A stretch of 41,413 bases of DNA from a virus (IMGVR_UViG_2541047940_000004:1-41413); one strand, 5' to 3'; positions 1,295 to 35,103 are shown, counted from the first letter of the stretch. The notes: generated from the sequence alone by a model not told the origin. Made by a program: numbers and translations.

Positions 1295-3469
1295 TCATTT
1301 CACCACCCAACCAGAATTCCAGCGACCTGATTCTTTGATGTAGAGTCTTCCATTTACGATATCTCGATACTCGCTTCCAGGTGTGGCTATTTGTACTCCT
1401 TCAGGATTTCCAGTGCCAGCAATTATACTGTAACTAACGTCTGTGGCTAAATTCCTAACAATGTTAGCAGGAGGGTAAACGTTATCTGCAACAATAATAT
1501 TTGAGCAACTTGCTGTTACATCTACAAAAAACTCATTGCTTATCGAGTTGTGATAACAGTTGTTACTAATCACACCATTTTTAGCAGATGAATCAATACC
1601 TATAACTGCGTCTCCAGCTACAGATTCAAATGAATTTGATGTCACAGTGAATCCGTGGCATTCGCAGTTAATATGGACAGCTCTTCTTCCGTTCATTGCT
1701 GTATTACCTACAATTGATATGTTTCTACTTAACAAAGTTCCTTTGTATTCGCCATCATCCTCAAATATATAGAATATCGCCTTAGCCGTATCAACTTTAT
1801 TGTTGCTTGCAATCACATTAGCAATGTAATTCCCTCTAAGGAATATCCCATTACATGAATCGACTGTGTTTCCAGTGATGGAAACTCCGTCAACCCATCT
1901 CATATCAAGAATGGAGCCATCACAGGACTCAAAATTATTTCCTGATATCCTCCAGTCTCTGTGAAATATTCTACTACCTTCCAATCCGCTCTCAATAAAT
2001 GTTGGTGTAAGGCATGATATCACAGAATTTCCAGTGCAATTTTTAAATGTATTATGATGTATACACACATCTCTTGATGTTTCCCGAAGAGTTGTGCTTA
2101 CTTTCCTCCCGGTAAATATTATTGCTGGATTAGTGAAATTTATAAATGTGTTTGAACCAATGTCAACATTTTCCCACCTAGAAAAGCCACGAATGCCAGA
2201 ATAAGAATTACCATCAAAAGTACAATGGTGGATTTTTATATCAATAACTGGCTGCGCTCCATCTGTTGAACCGTGATTCCCTACGCCAACAGCCCATGAC
2301 GGTAGAGATTCTGACGGTCCAAAATAACAACCAGACACTTTAATGCTAGCGATATTATCATTGCTGGACAATGGTGTTTCAATCTGAATAGCATCTGAAA
2401 AACCTCTGTTACCTGCCCAATCCATAAACCCCATAAAACGGCAGTTTTCAATATTAACATTTCTCACGCGAGACAAGTCTATAGCATGCGCCCCTGAAAC
2501 ATTAAGGAATGTGCAATCCCGAAATATAATCCCATTAGTAAAAACAAATTCAAATATACTGGCTTGGTTTTTGTATATATTGCCATTGTTATTAAAAACA
2601 CCACCAAATACAGATATATTATTACCACATTCGACTTCAGATGTGTATATGCAAGCAAATGTATTTACACCTGTGTCTGAATTATCAAAAGCACGAATAA
2701 TAGTTGCACCTCGTAGATGTAAACTTGTGTTTGAGTATATCATTATTTTTTTTGTTATTTTTATAAGCCATTCACTACGAAAAGTTAAATTCAAACATCC
2801 GTTTATCTTTGCGATATTTAAAGCATTCTGTAAGGCATCGCTATCGTCGCTTACACCATCACCTGTAACCCCAAACCATGACGGTGAAACCTCATTCCCG
2901 TAAACCCTCTTCCACCTTCTACCGTTAAAACCTACAAGAATTGTTCCGTCATTATCTTCTGATGTCGTATCTGTTGGGTCAGCATAGAACACCCCATCAC
3001 CGCCATCGAACAAATTATTTCTTCCATAACAGATTATTTTGTCATTTGTGCCATTATATGAACGTATGTCTGTATAATTACCACCTCCTAAATACGATAC
3101 CCCGTCAATCTGATTTAGTTTCTGCTGAAACATGTCTGGATCATACTTCAGCACATTAGGAAAATAGAATTGCTGCGCTCCATACGCATCATATACAGCC
3201 ATAGAATGGCCTTGCACGGTTACGAATTTGGCAATCTGTCCGTTATATACCGGATATCCAGCAGCGTTAATGATGATTGGTTGCGAAACAGGGATGTGAG
3301 AACCGTCTTCGTTCTCCACATAAACCTGAATCTGGTTTTCAGGATTTACCGGGTCAGTGTCAATTTTACCGATATAAATTTTGCCATTAGCTACGGCTTT
3401 AAAAGAACGCGCCATAGTGAAAAGTTGCGAAGGCATCGATACGATCACATTGGCTGTAATGTCTGTCAT
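1295..3469 (-). CDS. Tailspike protein: P22-type head-binding N-terminal domain plus beta-helix receptor-binding domain
   Basis: 724 aa; N-terminus MTDITANV...[37 protein letters not shown] matches the P22/Sf6-family tailspike head-binding domain from memory; remainder is Asn/Gly/Ser-rich repetitive and AT-rich, consistent with a beta-helix. Confidence 0.9.
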
Positions 3470-3526
3470 TTAATTTTCTCCAGATACAAGGAATCGCCGA
3501 AGCATGGCTACGGTGAATTTTAGGCA

Positions 3527-3550
3527 TAAAAAAACCCAGCCTAAGCTGGG
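3527..3550 (-). terminator. Rho-independent terminator downstream of ant
   Basis: Minus strand reads CCCAGC-ttag-GCTGGG followed by a 7-8 nt T-run, immediately after the ant stop. Confidence 0.55.
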
Positions 3551-3569
3551 TCGTTGCGTTGGTTATCTG

Positions 3570-4538
3570 TCAGTAGTTATGTACTGAAGGAGGTAATTCT
3601 TTATTCTTAAGTCTTATCCATGCGGAAAGATTCGTTGGTCCGTCTGGCTCATTGATATCAACATCTCGTGTGTGGTTGATTAAAACGTCTCTCGCCATTC
3701 CGATAACATACGAGAATTCATGACCGTAGTCGTAGCATCTGCCGGAATAGTTCGATTGAATTTGTTTCAGCGCCGGATACAATTCGCGGAATAATGCCTG
3801 TGAGCGGTTGGCATAATCCCATAACCATACAAGGCTGTTTGCTTCTTTTGCAGAAAGCTCGTTTGCTTTCTTCTCTTGTTTGCCGATTAACTCGCCTTCA
3901 AGCACTACCCTGTGGATGTACTCTACGGCTTGCGGTATCTGAGATGCATCAAGCTCTTCAATACTTTCCACATTGAAACGCTGATGAATCATTGCATAAG
4001 CTTCTGGGTACATTAGATGCTTTTTGCTGACTAGCATATTTACAGCATCACGAAGCGGAGTCCTGTCATCAACAGATGTTTTCTTACGTGCATTTTCTGC
4101 CTTTCCCTTTGTCCAGTAGTCATGCAGTACAGTAAAGCATTCTTCCTGGTACTGAATCAGTTTATCACGGATGTCAGCACGAACTTTCTCAGGGTTGATG
4201 CTGATCAGCCATCCATTTAACTTCTTCAAAGGAAGGCATAGTAGCTTACGAAGCTTCCCATCAGCGGCAACCATGTTCATATGAACACAGTTGAATTTGC
4301 TAATCTGCTTCATGAGTTTTGTTTGCTGCGTTGACCAGCTCATTCCAAGGTTTTCAACGATTGGCTTCATCGCAACATATGCAACTCCGGCAGCCATGGC
4401 GGTGATAATTTGCTGACCGTTGAATGGTACATAAGAGGTGTTCACTGCTTCTAAAATTGCTATACTATTCATGTTGGTTTTTCTCCACGGATTTACTGAC
4501 AACCGAAGCCCTGACTGTTCCCGCAGTTGGGGCTTCAC
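3570..4538 (-). CDS. ant: Antirepressor Ant
   Basis: Position downstream of arc in the immI operon; ORF start at 4538 overlaps the stop of the upstream ORF (ATGA); alternative start at 4472 (MNSIAIL..., preceded by GGAG) gives 300 aa, the size I recall for P22 Ant. Confidence 0.8.
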
Positions 4539-4756
4539 TGTTTTTGTAAGTCACTGTAGTTATAAAGCCACTGACCACTCATTCTTGCTTTGATTGACTC
4601 TACTGAATCACGGCAAGGAATGATTCCACCTGACATCATTCTGATCTCCGTAAATTCACCGCTCCTTATCGACTCAATGCCATTAACGTTAACTAAAGAT
4701 TTACCTCTACCAAGTGCATTCTCATAGCCAATCTCATCAACCTCAATAAACCTCAT
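4535..4756 (-). CDS. Hypothetical 73-aa protein inserted between arc and ant
   Basis: ORF with ATGA overlap to the arc stop and to the ant alternative start; AGGGG-type RBS upstream; no P22 counterpart at this position as far as I recall. Confidence 0.5.
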
Positions 4757-4911
4757 ACCGTTATCCCCTCTCTCTTCAGGCTGTCCATCACTCGCTTATA
4801 AATCTCAGAGTTAACAGATCGCCCGTTCTCTTCAGCTACCTTGCGCACCAAATCCAATACTTCTTTAGGCCACCGCAAATTGAACTGCGGCATTTTGCTC
4901 ATTCCTTTCAT
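4753..4911 (-). CDS. arc: Arc repressor
   Basis: MKGMSKMPQFNLRWPKEVLDLVRKVAEENGRSVNSEIYKRVMDSL... matches P22 Arc from memory; true start at internal Met of the 73-aa track ORF (4753-4974). Confidence 0.9.
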   Translation of the reverse strand: MKGMSKMPQFNLRWPKEVLDLVRKVAEENGRSVNSEIYKRVMDSLKREGITV

Positions 4912-4927
4912 ATTTACCTCACAATAT

Positions 4928-4944
4928 AGGTCCACGGTGGACCT
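4928..4944. promoter_or_regulatory. Mnt operator (Omnt)
   Basis: Exact 17-bp palindrome AGGTCCACGGTGGACCT between divergent mnt and arc. Confidence 0.75.
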
Positions 4945-4953
4945 ATTGAGAAT

Positions 4954-4974
4954 ATAGTAGAGTGCTTCTATCAT
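4954..4974. promoter_or_regulatory. Arc operator (Oarc)
   Basis: 21-bp ATAGTAGAGTGCTTCTATCAT, the reverse complement of the P22 arc operator as I recall it. Confidence 0.75.
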
Positions 4975-22000: not shown

Positions 22001-22450
22001 TCATCGAAGGCATTGCGTCCTGATGTATTCCTGCAGGTAGTTAACCTGCGCGGTTATTTTGTCGATTCCACTTCGGAGACGGTAATAATTGAGTTCAGCA
22101 TCTGCTGTAAGTCTTGGGCTTTCTCCATCGCCCATGCTGCTGGCTCCGGTCGTTGGCTTTGCACAGGTGGCGGCGACTTGCAGGCGCTTACGACCAGCAG
22201 AAACATCAGCACGGAGACTTTCGATAGTCGCGTTAGCATCAGCAAGTTCCTTTGTATATCTTGCGTCGAGTTCTGCTACATCACGTTGACGCTTCTGCAT
22301 ATCAGCGATGATGGATGTGGCTTTATCGCGCTGTTCTTTGTAGGTCATGGCGTTATCACGGTAATGATTAACAGCCCATGACAGGCAGACGATGATGCAG
22401 ATAACCAGAGCGGAGATAATCACGGTTACTCTACTCATTGTTGCCCCCAC
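22001..22450 (-). CDS. Rz i-spanin
   Basis: 149 aa with N-terminal TM segment ([20 protein letters not shown]) and coiled-coil remainder; last gene of lysis cassette. Confidence 0.8.
22054..22245 (-). CDS. Rz1 o-spanin (embedded in Rz, +1 frame)
   Basis: 63 aa with lipobox-like LLVVSAC and proline-rich [12 protein letters not shown]; entirely within Rz. Confidence 0.7.
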
Positions 22451-22932
22451 AAACAGACTTCACGCTCAATCTCACGGCGAGTCATCAGCCCTTTCCATTG
22501 CTTACCGCCAGCGTATGTCCAGCGCCGTAGCTGATCACATGCGCCTTTGATATCGCCCTGGTTTATTTTGCGAAGAAGCGTCGATGTTCTGAAATTTCCA
22601 GCACCAACGTTGTAAACGAACGAGTAAAGAGCGCCGCGCGTTGTTTCCGGTATATCGACTTTGATGTACGGGTTAATTTGTCTGGCGACAGTGGCAAGGT
22701 CTTTATTCAGGAGGGCTTTGCATTCTGCTTCGGTATACGTTTTACCGAGCATAATGTCTTTTCCGGTATGCCCGTAACATACAGTCCATACACCAACGAT
22801 ATCTTTATATGGTATGTAGCTGACGCCTTCCAGACCATCGTTACCACTTGGGCCAGTGATTAACACAGATGCTATAGCAATAGCCCCGCCACCAATAGCC
22901 GCAGCAACGGCTTTTCGTAATGATGGAGGCAT
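22435..22932 (-). CDS. SAR endolysin (lysozyme)
   Basis: 165 aa; Gly/Ala-rich N-terminal signal-anchor-release-like segment ([20 protein letters not shown]), then lysozyme-like core; between holin and Rz. Confidence 0.8.
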
Positions 22933-23147
22933 TATTCACCTCTCGCAGCCTTTCTTCTGTCTTCTCTGATTTTGAAGTACAGATTTGTCAGATAGGTGAG
23001 AAAGCCCAACACAAGGCTTCCAAGCACCCCAATCGCAGCCCACTGTGATGGACTGACCTGATCCAACCACTGCAAAAACCAGTATCCCGCACTACCAGCG
23101 GATGTTCCGTAGGCAATGCCAGTTGAGATTTTGTCCATTGATTTCAT
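22932..23147 (-). CDS. Pinholin (phage 21 S21-type)
   Basis: 71 aa [71 protein letters not shown] matches S21 from memory. Confidence 0.85.
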
Positions 23148-30769: not shown

Positions 30770-31420
30770 ATGAATACACAACTGATGGGTGAGCGTATTC
30801 GCGCTCGCAGAAAAGAACTCAAGATTAGGCAGGCTGCCCTTGGCAAGATGGTTGGCGTGTCTAATGTTGCTATTTCCCAATGGGAGCGATCTGAAACTGA
30901 GCCCAATGGCGAAAACCTATTGGCCTTAGCCAAGGCTTTGCAGTGCTCCCCTGATTACCTGTTGAAAGGAGAGGATAGTCTTTCAAACATTGCCTATCAC
31001 AGCAGGCATGATCCAAGAGGTTCGTATCCTCTAATTAGTTGGGTAAGCGCAGGATGTTGGATGGAAGCTGTAGAGCCATATCATAGGCGTGCAATAGATA
31101 ACTGGTACGACACAACGGTAGATTGTTCTGAAGACTCTTTTTGGCTCGATGTTAAAGGCGACTCAATGACTGCCCCGGCAGGACTGAGTATTCCTGAGGG
31201 GATGATTATTCTCGTCGACCCAGAAGTCGAACCACGTAATGGAAAGCTGGTAGTTGCCAAACTTGAAGGAGAAAACGAGGCGACATTCAAAAAGTTAGTT
31301 ATTGATGCCGGTAGAAAATTCCTGAAACCACTCAATCCACAATACCCAATGATTGAAATCAATGGGAACTGTAAAATCATTGGCGTTGTCGTTGATGCCA
31401 AGCTAGCAAACCTTCCTTAA
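30770..31420 (+). CDS. c2: C2 repressor (P22 immunity repressor, LexA-like autocleaving)
   Basis: 216 aa; near-identical to P22 C2 as recalled (MNTQLMGERIRARRK...GVVVDAKLANLP). Confidence 0.9.
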   Translation: MNTQLMGERIRARRKELKIRQAALGKMVGVSNVAISQWERSETEPNGENLLALAKALQCSPDYLLKGEDSLSNIAYHSRHDPRGSYPLISWVSAGCWMEAVEPYHRRAIDNWYDTTVDCSEDSFWLDVKGDSMTAPAGLSIPEGMIILVDPEVEPRNGKLVVAKLEGENEATFKKLVIDAGRKFLKPLNPQYPMIEINGNCKIIGVVVDAKLANLP

Positions 31421-31440
31421 GGGGCTTTCGCCCCTTTTTT
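31421..31440 (+). terminator. Rho-independent terminator after c2
   Basis: GGGGC-tttc-GCCCC followed by TTTTTT. Confidence 0.6.
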
Positions 31441-31509
31441 ATTTCCCGTTAAAAATCAAAGACAAACTAAATTCACGCTCATAAAATTAAGTTTTCTTCA
31501 AAAATACAC

Positions 31510-31538
31510 TTGACCAATAAATTAAGAGGTCTTAAATT
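31510..31538 (+). promoter_or_regulatory. pL-like promoter overlapping OL operator
   Basis: TTGACC, 17-bp spacer, TAAATT; operator palindrome AATTAAGAGGTCTTAAAT at 31519-31536. Confidence 0.5.
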
Positions 31539-31734
31539 TAAGCCATCGGCAGGACGCCGGAAGCCAAACGGAACAGATTGGCGGGCTCTTTAACATCGAC
31601 GAACTCTCAACCTAACCGTTGAGACCAGAACTTGAGTGGTTTTGGGGATGGCGCGAATTGCAGCTGCAAGACAGCGATCGAGAAGATAAGCACCTCGACG
31701 CGTCATGCGCCAAAGCCACTTAAAGGAGACCATC

Positions 31735-32040
31735 ATGGTAACCATTGTCTGGAAAGAATCCAAAGGTACGGCAAAAAGCCGCTACAAAGCTCGCAGAGCA
31801 GAACTTATTGCCGAGCGACGCAGTAATGAAGCACTGGCGCGAAAAATTGCGCTAAAGCTCTCTGGTTGCGTCAGAGCAGACAAAGCAGCTTCACTAGGAA
31901 GCCTTTGCTGCAAAAAGAAAGAAGAAGTCGTTCGAAAAAATAGAAGTATTTATTACAAGGATTCAAACCCATTAGGAAACAAAATACATGCAGTCCAAAA
32001 AATAAAATTGTACAGTAAACTGCCGTACGGTGCTTATTGA
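31735..32040 (+). CDS. N-like antiterminator
   Basis: First gene of the leftward early operon; arginine-rich motif KSRYKARRAELIAERRSNEALARK; start at internal Met MVTIVW of the track ORF. Confidence 0.65.
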   Translation: MVTIVWKESKGTAKSRYKARRAELIAERRSNEALARKIALKLSGCVRADKAASLGSLCCKKKEEVVRKNRSIYYKDSNPLGNKIHAVQKIKLYSKLPYGAY

Positions 32041-32042
32041 GT

Positions 32043-32381
32043 ATGCTTATGGTGAAAAAGACTATTTATGTTAATCCTGACCGCGGACAAAACAGAAAAG
32101 TATCTGATAGAGGTCTTACATCTCGGGACAGGAGGAGAATAGCGAGATGGGAAAAGAGGATAGCATATGCATTAAAAAACGGTGTAACAACTGGATTTAA
32201 TGCTATAGATGACGGTCCTGAATATAAGATTAATGAAGCCCCAATGGACAAAGTTGACAAAGCATTAGCAACACCATTTCCTCGCGATGTCGAAAAAATT
32301 GAAGATGAAAAATATGAGGATGTAATGCACAGAGTTGTTAATCACGCTCACCAACGAAATCCAAATAAAAAATGGTCATAG
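32043..32381 (+). CDS. Hypothetical basic protein (moron at the N 3' end)
   Basis: ORF beginning at or just after the N stop; AT-rich; followed by its own terminator. Confidence 0.5.
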   Translation: MLMVKKTIYVNPDRGQNRKVSDRGLTSRDRRRIARWEKRIAYALKNGVTTGFNAIDDGPEYKINEAPMDKVDKALATPFPRDVEKIEDEKYEDVMHRVVNHAHQRNPNKKWS

Positions 32382-32402
32382 CCCACTTCGGTGGGTTTTT
32401 TA
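32382..32402 (+). terminator. Rho-independent terminator
   Basis: CCCAC-ttcg-GTGGG tetraloop hairpin followed by TTTTTTA. Confidence 0.6.
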
Positions 32403-32410
32403 TTGTCTGA

Positions 32411-32512
32411 ACTAACAGAATTTATTACAGCAAGCCACGCAGCGAAGTGGGTGTGACTTGTGTTGGTCGCCAAAAGCAACGCGGAAAATCAATTCCAGCT
32501 TATTACGATTGA
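32411..32512 (+). pseudogene. Remnant of an N-gene 3' end (lambda N C-terminus-like)
   Basis: Short open frame translating TNRIYYSKPRSEVGVTCVGRQKQRGKSIPAYYD, resembling the lambda N C-terminus (...YSKPGERGITCSGRQKIKGKSIPLI) as recalled; no start codon, preceded by a terminator. Confidence 0.5.
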
Positions 32513-32520
32513 GGTGAGAT

Positions 32521-32970
32521 ATGGAAGAGCAAGCAAACAAGATTCTCGTAGAACTACTGCAAAAAGCCAGTAATGGAATAGACGCGGCTGTTTCATTTAG
32601 CCAGGCACAGATTCCTGATGTTGTTCATCAGTTGCTGCTATGGAATATGGTTGACAGTCTGATTAAAACATTAATGGCCATTCTAACAATCCCACTGGTT
32701 TTCTGGTTTATGAAGAAGCAGTGCCAAAGAGTTGAGACAGGTAAAATCGGTGATGAAGGATATTCATGGGAGAAAGGAAATCCCAAATACAGGCCGACAA
32801 TGGTTTGGGATAGCAAAGGTGATATTAATCTTCTTATCATGCCATTGGTTGGAGTTTTGACTCTGTGGGGGATTTTTATTATTGGTGTAGTAACCAATAT
32901 GACTTGGTTAAAAATTTGGCTGGCCCCAAAGCTTTACCTTATCGAATATGCAGCATCATTGGTTAAGTAA
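32521..32970 (+). CDS. Predicted inner-membrane protein in the SieB-equivalent position
   Basis: 149 aa with two long hydrophobic segments; GAGGTGA RBS; early-left operon downstream of N. Confidence 0.55.
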   Translation: MEEQANKILVELLQKASNGIDAAVSFSQAQIPDVVHQLLLWNMVDSLIKTLMAILTIPLVFWFMKKQCQRVETGKIGDEGYSWEKGNPKYRPTMVWDSKGDINLLIMPLVGVLTLWGIFIIGVVTNMTWLKIWLAPKLYLIEYAASLVK

Positions 32971-32974
32971 TTTC

Positions 32975-33000
32975 AGGCCGCATAGTCGGCCTTTATTTTT
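32975..33000 (+). terminator. Rho-independent terminator
   Basis: AGGCCG-catagt-CGGCCT followed by TTTATTTTT. Confidence 0.55.
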
Positions 33001-33022
33001 GGCATAAACAACAGAGGTGAAT

Positions 33023-33157
33023 ATGAACGCAGTTGAATTTACAAAATGGATGGCAGAGCAAGATATCACAGAAGCCGACGAAAAGGCTGTGTACTACATG
33101 GCTCTGCTATGGATTCACAAAGCAAAAGAGGCTGCAAATGCTCTTGGAGGTGAGTGA
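33023..33157 (+). CDS. Small hypothetical protein (44 aa)
   Basis: GAGG RBS; stop overlaps next start (TGATG); below the track length cutoff. Confidence 0.4.
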   Translation: MNAVEFTKWMAEQDITEADEKAVYYMALLWIHKAKEAANALGGE

Positions 33158-33345
33158 TGAAAGTAAAAATAACTGCTTCTAATACCAGTTTTGTTAGTGT
33201 TGGTGATATTACAGAAGTAATAACAAACCATGATGGAACACAAGTTATGTGGTCTGATTTTTGTAAAAGACATGAGCGAGTTAGTTGGTGTAAAAACGTA
33301 TGGGGAGTCGAATACGAAGAATTACCTGAAATGCATGACGAATAA
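33157..33345 (+). CDS. Small hypothetical protein (62 aa)
   Basis: ATG overlapping upstream stop; track ORF 33154-33345. Confidence 0.45.
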   Translation: MKVKITASNTSFVSVGDITEVITNHDGTQVMWSDFCKRHERVSWCKNVWGVEYEELPEMHDE

Positions 33346-33530
33346 GCACTGTGTATTCATTCCAACGAGTGAATACACGGAGCAATGTCGCTCGTAACTA
33401 AACAGGAGCCGACTTGTTCTGATTATTGGAAATCTTCTTTGCCCTCCAGTGTGAGGGCCTTTTTATATGCATACCAATAACGCTTCACTTGAGGCGTTTT
33501 CGTTATGCAATCAAATATAAGGAGTTACCC

Positions 33531-33665
33531 ATGATGCACTTTCAGCTCGCGGGTAGCGGCGTCATGTCCGCTTTCTACCCGCACGAATCTGAATTATCAC
33601 GCCGAGTTAAACAATTAATCAGAGCAGCAAAGAAACAACTGGAGGCGTTATGCGCAATGAAATAG
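33531..33665 (+). CDS. Small hypothetical protein (44 aa)
   Basis: AAGGAG 6 nt upstream of ATG at 33531; the upstream part of track ORF 33426-33665 is rejected. Confidence 0.4.
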   Translation: MMHFQLAGSGVMSAFYPHESELSRRVKQLIRAAKKQLEALCAMK

Positions 33666-33802
33666 CCATCAATCACCAGATGCTTCGTGCAGCACAAAAC
33701 AAAGCAGTAATAGCCAGATTTATTGGTGATTCAAAAATGTGGCTTGAAGCAAATAAAGCGATGAAATCAGCTATCAACCTTCCGTGGTATCGCAGGAAAT
33801 GA
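33650..33802 (+). CDS. Small hypothetical protein (50 aa)
   Basis: GGAGG 4 nt upstream of ATG; below track cutoff. Confidence 0.4.
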   Translation: MRNEIAINHQMLRAAQNKAVIARFIGDSKMWLEANKAMKSAINLPWYRRK

Positions 33803-33883
33803 GTTTTACAGATAACTGGTCAGACGAAGAATTCATTCGTCAGATGAACAAAATGCTCAATCAGCACAAAGAACAGGAGAAAG

Positions 33884-34195
33884 ATGATGATTCTGACTCT
33901 GAATGATAAGCGTGAAATATCGCAAATAATCGCAAGTTTTACTGATGAAGATTACGAGCGAATCAACAGTGAAGTTGATCGCCTCTGCAAACGTTGCGAC
34001 CCAATAAGCGAAATGCTTCGCTCATATAAACCAGATGAACACACTAAGGACGCTATCGACTGGCTGGAAGATGATGACTGTAACTATCAGGAAAAAGCCG
34101 CTGAATGGTTCTGGGATGCAATAACCGAAAGAGTTAAGGCTGAATATGCCTTCGCAATATTCAAACGCAGACATATTTATGGAGAAGCTGCATGA
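33884..34195 (+). CDS. Hypothetical 103-aa protein
   Basis: ORF immediately upstream of and overlapping the recT-like gene. Confidence 0.5.
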   Translation: MMILTLNDKREISQIIASFTDEDYERINSEVDRLCKRCDPISEMLRSYKPDEHTKDAIDWLEDDDCNYQEKAAEWFWDAITERVKAEYAFAIFKRRHIYGEAA

Positions 34196-35103
34196 GCAAT
34201 ATCGTTGAATTCGTTAAACAGCAAGAGCAGTTATTCTGCGGAGCATTGACTGAACAGACGGTGACATGGGCTAAGGAAAGCCAGTTTGCAATTCAGTATT
34301 TCCAGAAAAACGATTGCCTGGCTAAAACAGCACTGGCAAATCCAACCAGCGCACAGAACGCCATCATCAACGTTGCGGCGATCGGCATCACCTTAAACCC
34401 TGCAAGCAAACTGGCTTATCTAGTTCCGCGCGATGGCATGGTTTGCCTTGATATCAGCTATATGGGATTGCTTCATATTGCAATGGAGTCTGGTGTTATC
34501 TCATGGGGTCAGGCAAAACTTGTTCATGCTAACGATACCTATGAGTCAAACGGGCTTGATAAAGCACCAACCCATAAATACAACGCCTTCGGTGATCGTG
34601 GTGATATCGTTGGCGTTTACTGCACAGTTAAGACGCCGGCAGGTGATTATCTAACGGAAGAGATGAGTCTGGCTGAAATTGAGGCTGTAAGGAAAACAAG
34701 CAAGGCGGCATTCAGCGATAAAGGACCATGGGTAAATCACTGGAATGAGATGGCGCGAAAGACGGTCGTAAAGCGTGCAAGCAAGTATTGGCCTAAGGCA
34801 TCACGTCTTGATAGTGCTATTCACGTACTAAACGAAGAAGAAGGTGTGTGGACTGAACCAGTTATGCCGCACAAATCAGAGGAAGATATCCGCGAAGATG
34901 AACGGAAACGCCAGCAGGAAATAATGGATAAAGCACAACTTCTTTGCGATGAAATGGCTCAGGCAGAAAACATGGACGATTTGAAGCGATATTTTGCAGA
35001 AGCATATCGCCTGACATCTGGAATGAAATTGCAGCAGAACGTACAAGCCATTTACGCAGAATGCAAAGCGAAACTGGAGGTTGCCAGTGAGCAAACTATA
35101 TGA
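34192..35103 (+). CDS. RecT-family single-strand annealing recombinase
   Basis: 303 aa; position in early-left recombination module; resembles RecT-family proteins from memory; family assignment should be confirmed by HMM. Confidence 0.6.
   Translation: MSNIVEFVKQQEQLFCGALTEQTVTWAKESQFAIQYFQKNDCLAKTALANPTSAQNAIINVAAIGITLNPASKLAYLVPRDGMVCLDISYMGLLHIAMESGVISWGQAKLVHANDTYESNGLDKAPTHKYNAFGDRGDIVGVYCTVKTPAGDYLTEEMSLAEIEAVRKTSKAAFSDKGPWVNHWNEMARKTVVKRASKYWPKASRLDSAIHVLNEEEGVWTEPVMPHKSEEDIREDERKRQQEIMDKAQLLCDEMAQAENMDDLKRYFAEAYRLTSGMKLQQNVQAIYAECKAKLEVASEQTI

Follow-up and report, generated by a model that had tools for sequence, protein, structure and literature searches.

The open reading frame at positions 32521–32970 of the viral DNA analysed here (41,413 nucleotides at full length, hereafter the window) is an ordinary accessory gene of a catalogued protein family, PHROG 3054. 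Its 149 residue product, a membrane protein with two hydrophobic segments, had been proposed as an equivalent of the SieB exclusion protein of lambda and P22; the comparisons below indicate that the two proteins are unrelated and that the analogy is positional only. The best overall explanation, which we advance tentatively, is that the gene codes for an N-dependent, lytic-phase inner-membrane accessory protein. The features of the window that bear on this reading are as follows.

22001–22450, minus strand: Rz gene of the lysis cassette
22435–22932, minus strand: endolysin gene of the lysis cassette
22932–23147, minus strand: holin gene of the lysis cassette
30770–31420, plus strand: cI/C2-like repressor gene, then its terminator
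31510–31538, plus strand: pL-like promoter, TTGACC-17 nt-TAAATT, located by promoter scan and sequence in P22-type operator sequence downstream of the repressor gene
31585–31624, plus strand: nutL-like site, with a boxA-like sequence, GCTCTTTAACA, at 31585–31595 and a boxB-like hairpin, TCTCAAC-CTAACC-GTTGAGA, at 31605–31624
31705–32040, plus strand: N-like antiterminator gene, 111 aa (PHROG 271, E = 1e-31; weak Pfam N_peptide match)
32037–32381, plus strand: Nun-like transcription termination factor gene, 114 aa (PHROG 5632, E = 7e-70)
32380–32403, plus strand: intrinsic terminator after the Nun-like gene (terminator scan, 32380–32397; -10.3 kcal/mol, z -3.0)
32414–32512, plus strand: 3'-terminal relic of a second, distinct N gene that keeps its TGA stop (translation match to the N protein of phage HF4s)
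32511–32517, plus strand: Shine-Dalgarno sequence GAGGTGA, read from the sequence
32521–32970, plus strand: membrane-protein gene, 149 aa (PHROG 3054 match, homologues, hydropathy, alignment and dN/dS)
32975–33000, plus strand: intrinsic terminator homologous to the lambdoid tL2a/boundary sequence, with a hairpin and T-run at 32975–32992
33650–33802, plus strand: kil
34192–35103, plus strand: RecT gene

Three lines of evidence indicate that the 149-codon frame, which opens with ATG, is a real gene rather than a chance open reading frame. First, the protein matches the PHROG 3054 HMM over its full length (E = 4.2e-64, residues 1–149 on profile positions 1–137 of 137). Second, it has 516 homologues among 90%-identity cluster representatives, and 1,865 clusters at 50% identity match it at E ≤ 1e-3. 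Third, dN/dS against close relatives is 0.12–0.36, and purifying selection evidently acts on the gene. The gap between the GAGG of the Shine-Dalgarno sequence and the ATG is 6 nt; the same Shine-Dalgarno is kept in Salmonella phage Oslo and in Sf6, and is degenerate (GAGGGCA) in HK639. Hydropathy identifies one hydrophobic segment at approximately residues 46–64 (best 19-residue Kyte-Doolittle mean 1.87) and a second at approximately residues 104–127 (2.45), separated by a hydrophilic loop of ~40 residues, and the GC content of the gene is 39.8%, against 46.5% for the whole window. The original prediction of an AT-rich gene with its own ribosome-binding site, coding for a 149 residue protein with two long hydrophobic segments, is borne out by these results.

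The protein is 97–98% identical to the products of genes in Gally, HF4s and Stx2 phages, and many E. coli prophages and phages carry near-identical copies of the gene (97–99%), the database entries at this level of identity being named only 'hypothetical protein' or 'phage transmembrane protein'. Searches for a described function were negative: the protein has no Pfam match at E ≤ 1, no NCBIfam match and no PADLOC-DB match at E ≤ 1, and among PHROGs at E ≤ 0.1 it matches 3054 only, with none annotated as superinfection exclusion. Literature searches found no paper that mentions PHROG 3054 or VOG0622, and none that assigns a role to Sf6 gene 34 or to homologues of it.

The window is a mosaic P22-like (Lederbergvirus-type) coliphage or prophage; among database records phage Kapi1 comes closest to it, matching 59% of 23.4 kb at 96.8% identity. 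The pL-like promoter, the nutL-like boxA and boxB and the N-like gene all precede the membrane-protein gene on its own strand, and by this layout the gene belongs to the N-antiterminated pL (early-left) operon. P22 annotates pL and OL at the position equivalent to 31510–31538, and we infer from position that the promoter is pL. The boxB-like hairpin, a 7-bp stem with a CUAACC hexaloop, folds at -8.0 kcal/mol (z -3.8), and none of 200 shuffled sequences folds as well; it seems to resemble the phage 21 type of boxB rather than the lambda or P22 pentaloop types. Antitermination by N at nut sites is an established paradigm in lambda, and by analogy with the lambdoid systems 31585–31624 would function as nutL.

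The membrane-protein gene had been placed directly after N; its actual upstream neighbour is the Nun-like gene, which overlaps the N-like gene by 4 nt, an arrangement also found in Kapi1, mEp235 and mEpX1. If HK022 Nun is taken as a guide, this Nun-like gene is a better candidate for an exclusion determinant in the region than the membrane protein itself. The sequence between the Nun-like and membrane-protein genes is an apparent spacer that carries the ribosome-binding site of the latter. It translates, over 32414–32512, to NRIYYSKPRSEVGVTCVGRQKQRGKSIPAYYD followed by a stop codon, and the 32 codons plus stop match the last 32 residues of HF4s N. The HF4s homologue of the membrane-protein gene is 97.3% identical and begins 8 nt downstream of the stop codon of N. 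Because of this translation match, and because the HF4s gene follows N so closely, the spacer is the fossil 3' end of an N gene; the simplest arrangement would be one in which the membrane-protein gene directly follows N within one transcription unit. The relic also marks the joint at which recombination introduced the cassette.

A consensus promoter scan of 32400–32520 finds no sigma-70-like site, although a weak promoter inside the N relic may have been missed by such a scan. As the 5' boundary of the cassette is the end of an N gene, co-transcription with N is indicated. The gene would be transcribed from pL and shut off by the repressor in a lysogen, and RNA polymerase modified by N at nutL would have to read through the terminator at 32380 to reach it. 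Since no promoter of its own was found and pL is repressed in a lysogen, the sequence and the lambda paradigm together suggest that the membrane protein is produced at an early stage of the lytic cycle or following induction, and not from the resting prophage.

Comparison with related loci (BLAST of 31401–34300) provides evidence that the gene is interchangeable. Kapi1 matches the window up to 32475 and again from 32975, and between these identical flanks it carries a gene with an Nmad5 (nucleotide-modification-associated) domain, at 3959–4642 in the coordinates of that locus; an Nmad5 gene holds the same slot in many other E. coli prophages. Because Kapi1 has the Nmad5 gene in its place, the gene at 32521–32970 is exchangeable, non-essential cargo, and the slot, which the N/Nun region borders on one side and the tL2a boundary sequence on the other, is a hot spot of cargo exchange. 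The terminator that closes the slot, whose hairpin at 32975–32992 folds at -9.7 kcal/mol (z -2.4), is shared in the same way. Over 32975–33015 it is homologous to sequences that in lambda lie immediately 3' of ral, in Sf6 follow gene 34 and in Kapi1 follow the Nmad5 gene; the Sf6 copy is annotated "tL2A; homology to phage lambda" and lies beside the boundary sequence bsq4, and the same terminator sequence follows the Nmad5 genes of many E. coli prophages. A clean terminator does follow the membrane-protein gene, as had been noted, but it is common to lambda, Sf6 and Kapi1 and is not the gene's own; it is a backbone element of the operon.

Beyond the terminator, the plus strand carries two small open reading frames, a cIII-type region, kil and RecT, in that order. 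The two small frames, at 33017–33157 (PHROG 24660) and 33154–33345 (PHROG 10407), belong to families without an annotated function and make up an extra insert, 33016–33345, that is missing at the equivalent point in Kapi1, HF4s, Gally, Sf6 and lambda; homology resumes at 33346.

The gene resembles the lambdoid morons in being AT-rich and dispensable, in forming a cassette exchanged between conserved boundary sequences and in being followed by a terminator. Morons, however, have their own promoter and terminator and are expressed from the prophage, whereas no promoter of its own is detected for this gene and its terminator is the tL2a backbone element. Its identity as a moron was rejected on these two points, although its GC content is atypically low.

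Because the interval between N and cIII is a cargo slot bounded by the 3' end of N and the tL2a boundary sequence, position within it is no guide to function, and a shared position does not imply a shared function. This bears directly on the proposal that the protein is a SieB-equivalent superinfection exclusion or abortive-infection determinant expressed from the prophage. SieB of lambda, P22 and Rac-type prophages is likewise small and membrane-associated, and its gene lies in the variable interval that separates an N-type antiterminator from cIII/kil, and the membrane-spanning product and AT-rich, cargo-like composition of the gene at 32521–32970 are what such a determinant would show. The SieB-equivalent position claimed for it thus holds as far as the interval is concerned, but the strand is the opposite one: sieB lies antisense to the pL operon, opposite to N, in lambda, P22 and Oslo, whereas the membrane-protein gene lies on the N strand. 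The antisense orientation fits expression of sieB from the prophage, and P22 sieB has an annotated promoter, RNA start and internal esc, the Esc product arising from an internal start. Acting from the prophage, SieB stops phages that superinfect a lysogen from growing lytically, and Esc confers self-protection.

Sequence comparison separates the two proteins further. SieB is 184–194 aa long and is readily recognised by the Pfam SieB profile PF14163, the positive controls scoring 1e-29 (lambda SieB) and 6e-27 (Oslo SieB); the 149 residue protein does not match this profile. An alignment of 149 family members gives hhalign probabilities of 0.13% against lambda SieB and 0.26% against P22 SieB, 0.13% against RexB and 0.10% against P22 SieA, so that the profile comparison suggested as a check on the original prediction, covering SieB and other exclusion proteins, returns at most 0.3% throughout. 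Salmonella phage Oslo carries sieB (gp48) immediately beside an 88.6%-identical homologue of the membrane-protein gene (gp47), and SieB and PHROG 3054 are therefore not alternatives to each other. No promoter-like site lies upstream of the gene, its HF4s counterpart is fused to the end of N, and the family extends to strictly virulent phages. A prophage-expressed, SieB-type function is highly improbable, and this reading is largely refuted on homology and gene organisation. Membership of the other known defence or exclusion families considered (PADLOC-DB, PHROG superinfection exclusion, RexB, SieA) was likewise rejected, there being no sequence or profile similarity to any of them. The SieB analogy is wrong, and for the window itself the gene matters little.

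The family is of broader interest for its distribution. PHROG 3054 is matched by all 149 aligned relatives, whose matches also include PHROGs 23747 (unknown function) and 1486 ('membrane protein'); Pfam matches over the same relatives amount to scattered noise of the transmembrane type. Lambdoid and P22-like members include Sf6 gene 34, HK639 gene 44, Oslo gp47, HF4s g37 and homologues in CUS-3, HK633, SPN9CC, N7, Gally and Stx2a phages. In every lambdoid case examined, among them Sf6 gene 34, HK639 gene 44, Oslo gp47 and the CUS-3-type prophage of UTI89, the gene lies on the N strand before a tL2-type terminator. Members in virulent phages are found in the N4-like Schitoviridae (Shigella phage B2 gp83, Klebsiella phage MY01, Vibrio phage 1.245.O), in the rV5-like Stephanstirmvirinae (gene 141 of phage outra), and in many Vibrio phages, Pseudomonas phage Bjorn and Rheinheimera phage Barba19A.

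In the virulent phages, the genes around the homologue are early, replication or auxiliary ones. Its neighbours vary by phage group and include RNA polymerase and dUTPase, SSB and an HNH nuclease, DUF2800 nucleases, thymidylate synthase and NAD-salvage genes; no conserved partner gene is present across the phage groups examined. The gene that follows the homologue codes for a collagen/YadA-anchor protein in B2 and for an AAA ATPase in outra; the two are unrelated, and a common partner was rejected. One metagenomic relative, 45% identical and located at 625–1059 of Logan contig SRR22403518, lies within a head-tail connector/tail cluster (DUF7370, HK97 gp10-like, tail terminator, Big_2). This location counts against the early-expression model, and because of it early expression is not universal in the PHROG 3054 family.

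In two N4-like phages, envelope-protein genes come next after the PHROG 3054 homologue. In Shigella phage B2 the following gene, at 3973–4962, is an early gene for a collagen-repeat protein with a YadA-like outer-membrane anchor, and in Klebsiella phage MY01 the homologue is followed, at 2914–3956, by early genes for a small membrane protein and a lipoprotein. These envelope genes may form an envelope-remodelling cluster.

The distribution of the family also bears on a possible role in counter-defence, in which an early membrane protein would neutralise a membrane-acting abortive-infection effector (Rex-, SieB- or pore-type) of the host or of a prophage, much as T4 rII acts against Rex. The surrounding early-left operon is rich in counter-defence and takeover genes (ral, abc/gam-type, kil, cIII), the gene lies beside sieB in Oslo, and it adjoins NAD-salvage genes, which act as counter-defence, in Rheinheimera phage Barba19A and Vibrio phage S4-7. 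Early expression, as deduced above, and presence in virulent phages, which need counter-defence, are in keeping with such a role. However, the protein has no homology to known anti-defence proteins, the family shows no conserved association with a particular defence system, and the strong conservation of its ends would call for a target common to very different hosts. We regard counter-defence as unlikely.

Conservation along the protein is sharply bipartite. The protein consists of an acidic N-terminal segment of 44 aa, a first transmembrane helix (TM1, ~46–64), a variable loop, a second transmembrane helix (TM2, ~104–127) and an amphipathic C-terminal tail (128–149). In length class, in its two hydrophobic segments and in both terminal motifs it agrees with the rest of PHROG 3054, from which it shows no difference of substance. 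The family motifs are F..(A)Q(I)PDV..QLL.W at the N-terminus and WL.I..APK.YL.EYAA.L.K at the C-terminus. P136 and K137 are invariant, and L9, F26, P32, V34, Q37–L39, W41, I132, A135, L140, E142, Y143, A145 and L147 are at least 90% conserved. The mean frequency of the commonest residue is 0.60 over the N-terminal 44 residues and 0.78 over the C-terminal 22, against 0.30 in TM1, 0.22 in the loop and 0.22 in TM2; dN/dS against HK639 comes to 0.05 in the N-terminal part and 0.02 in the C-tail. In the family alignment the two helices have mean hydropathies of 2.3 and 2.2, and the loop varies in length from 10 to 76 aa. Because they are poorly conserved compared with the strongly conserved termini, the hydrophobic helices look like generic membrane anchors.

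Both termini should lie on the same side of the membrane if the chain crosses it twice. The charges give mixed signals as to which side this would be. K+R make up 4.4% of the N-tail and D+E 13.5%, and an average of 3.1 K/R falls within the 12 residues that follow TM1; the charges flanking TM1 point to an N-terminus outside, whereas those flanking TM2, together with three conserved lysines of the C-tail, point to a C-terminus inside. On balance the charge statistics slightly favour the periplasmic side for the termini, with the loop inside, although the three conserved C-tail lysines argue against a periplasmic placement. An AlphaFold2 model is all-helical with a moderate pLDDT of 72. Foldseek finds no match for this model in the PDB and only family members in BFVD, and a profile search of PDB sequences returns only GPCR transmembrane noise (E ≥ 0.95).

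The size of the protein and its two hydrophobic helices recall the class II holins, which are of similar size and also have two such helices, and the homologue in Citrobacter phage K1M lies ~3 kb from a holin gene. A holin-, antiholin- or pinholin-like role in lysis timing is nevertheless very unlikely, because the phage has its own cassette of holin, endolysin and Rz genes, complete and located elsewhere in the window (22001–23147, minus strand). In addition, the gene lies in an early operon rather than a late one, its transmembrane helices are the least conserved part of the protein, unlike pore-forming helices, and no holin PHROG or Pfam entry is matched. Identity as a holin was rejected on its absence from the lysis cassette and on the lack of a holin-family match.

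Extreme conservation of both ends across host genera suggests a conserved host target, and the protein might instead serve host takeover, binding and modulating conserved inner-membrane machinery (that of division, FtsH, transport or energy metabolism) in favour of phage development, as its neighbours Kil and cIII do. The gene shares an operon with kil and the cIII-type region, and it has no phage partner. Against this, the protein does not resemble Kil, cIII or any other known host-directed factor, close relatives have exchanged the gene for another and so can dispense with it, and the acidic, K/R-poor N-tail resembles a translocated segment more than a cytoplasmic binding domain. Host takeover is an improbable role, though a conceivable one.

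Under the preferred explanation, that of an N-dependent, lytic-phase accessory protein of the inner membrane, the two hydrophobic helices would serve only as anchors, and the working part would be the acidic N-terminal 44 residues together with the amphipathic C-terminal 22. Needing no dedicated phage partner, the protein would act either on itself or on some conserved component of the host envelope. It would modify the inner membrane during lytic development and so protect the infection under way, with a logic like that of T4 Imm, which bars the DNA of a secondary infection from entering, and unlike that of a prophage-expressed abortive-infection determinant such as SieB. Any exclusion function, if it exists, should act during lytic growth and not from the prophage.

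Most characterised small phage membrane proteins outside lysis are exclusion factors, among them T4 Imm and Sp, P22 SieA, HK97 gp15 and lactococcal Sie2009. For this reason, and because of the adjacency of envelope genes in the N4-like phages, we rank Imm-like, lytic-phase protection against secondary infection, by analogy, as the likeliest specific role, while considering it doubtful in itself. T4 Imm and Sp, P22 SieA and HK97 gp15 are small phage proteins of the inner membrane that work unaided, as the protein described here presumably does. Production of T4 Imm and Sp begins early in lytic infection, the pattern deduced for the gene at 32521–32970; the resemblance is one of logic only, as there is no detectable homology to Imm, Sp, SieA or gp15, PHROG 3054 being the sole PHROG at E ≤ 0.1 and the hhalign probability against SieA standing at 0.1%. 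No similarity was found to annotated exclusion or defence families in PHROGs or PADLOC, or to RexB, SieA or SieB, and the conservation of the ends across Vibrio, Pseudomonas and enterobacterial phages fits a conserved host target, not exclusion specifically.

Extended to the whole family, this role would make PHROG 3054 a large, unrecognised class of lytic-phase membrane-guard proteins in temperate and virulent gamma-proteobacterial phages. In this speculative and rather unlikely scheme, the termini would lie outside the cytoplasm and form a small periplasm-facing domain that acts on a conserved host envelope component, blocking secondary DNA entry or blunting membrane-acting abortive infection. 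If true, it would represent a new exclusion or counter-defence family without homology to Imm, Sp, SieA, SieB or gp15. With ~1,865 clusters, constrained ends and members in temperate and virulent phages of several host genera, PHROG 3054 is a reasonable experimental target.

Two further homologues have short or unexpected records. In HK633, tblastn reveals a 121 aa homologue at 3001–3366, with 50% identity over the whole query. This gene appears to be under-annotated, as the record has only a 58-aa CDS at 3190–3366 and an overlapping upstream CDS at 2691–3080. A match to the 'DH5alpha' E. coli assembly NZ_CP026085.1 had suggested a homologue in a K-12 cryptic prophage; this was rejected, as the match, a short-loop homologue at 4013–4378, actually lies in the early region of a P22-like prophage in that assembly. 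Such a prophage is unexpected in the K-12 derivative DH5alpha, and the stock may have been lysogenised or the strain mislabelled.
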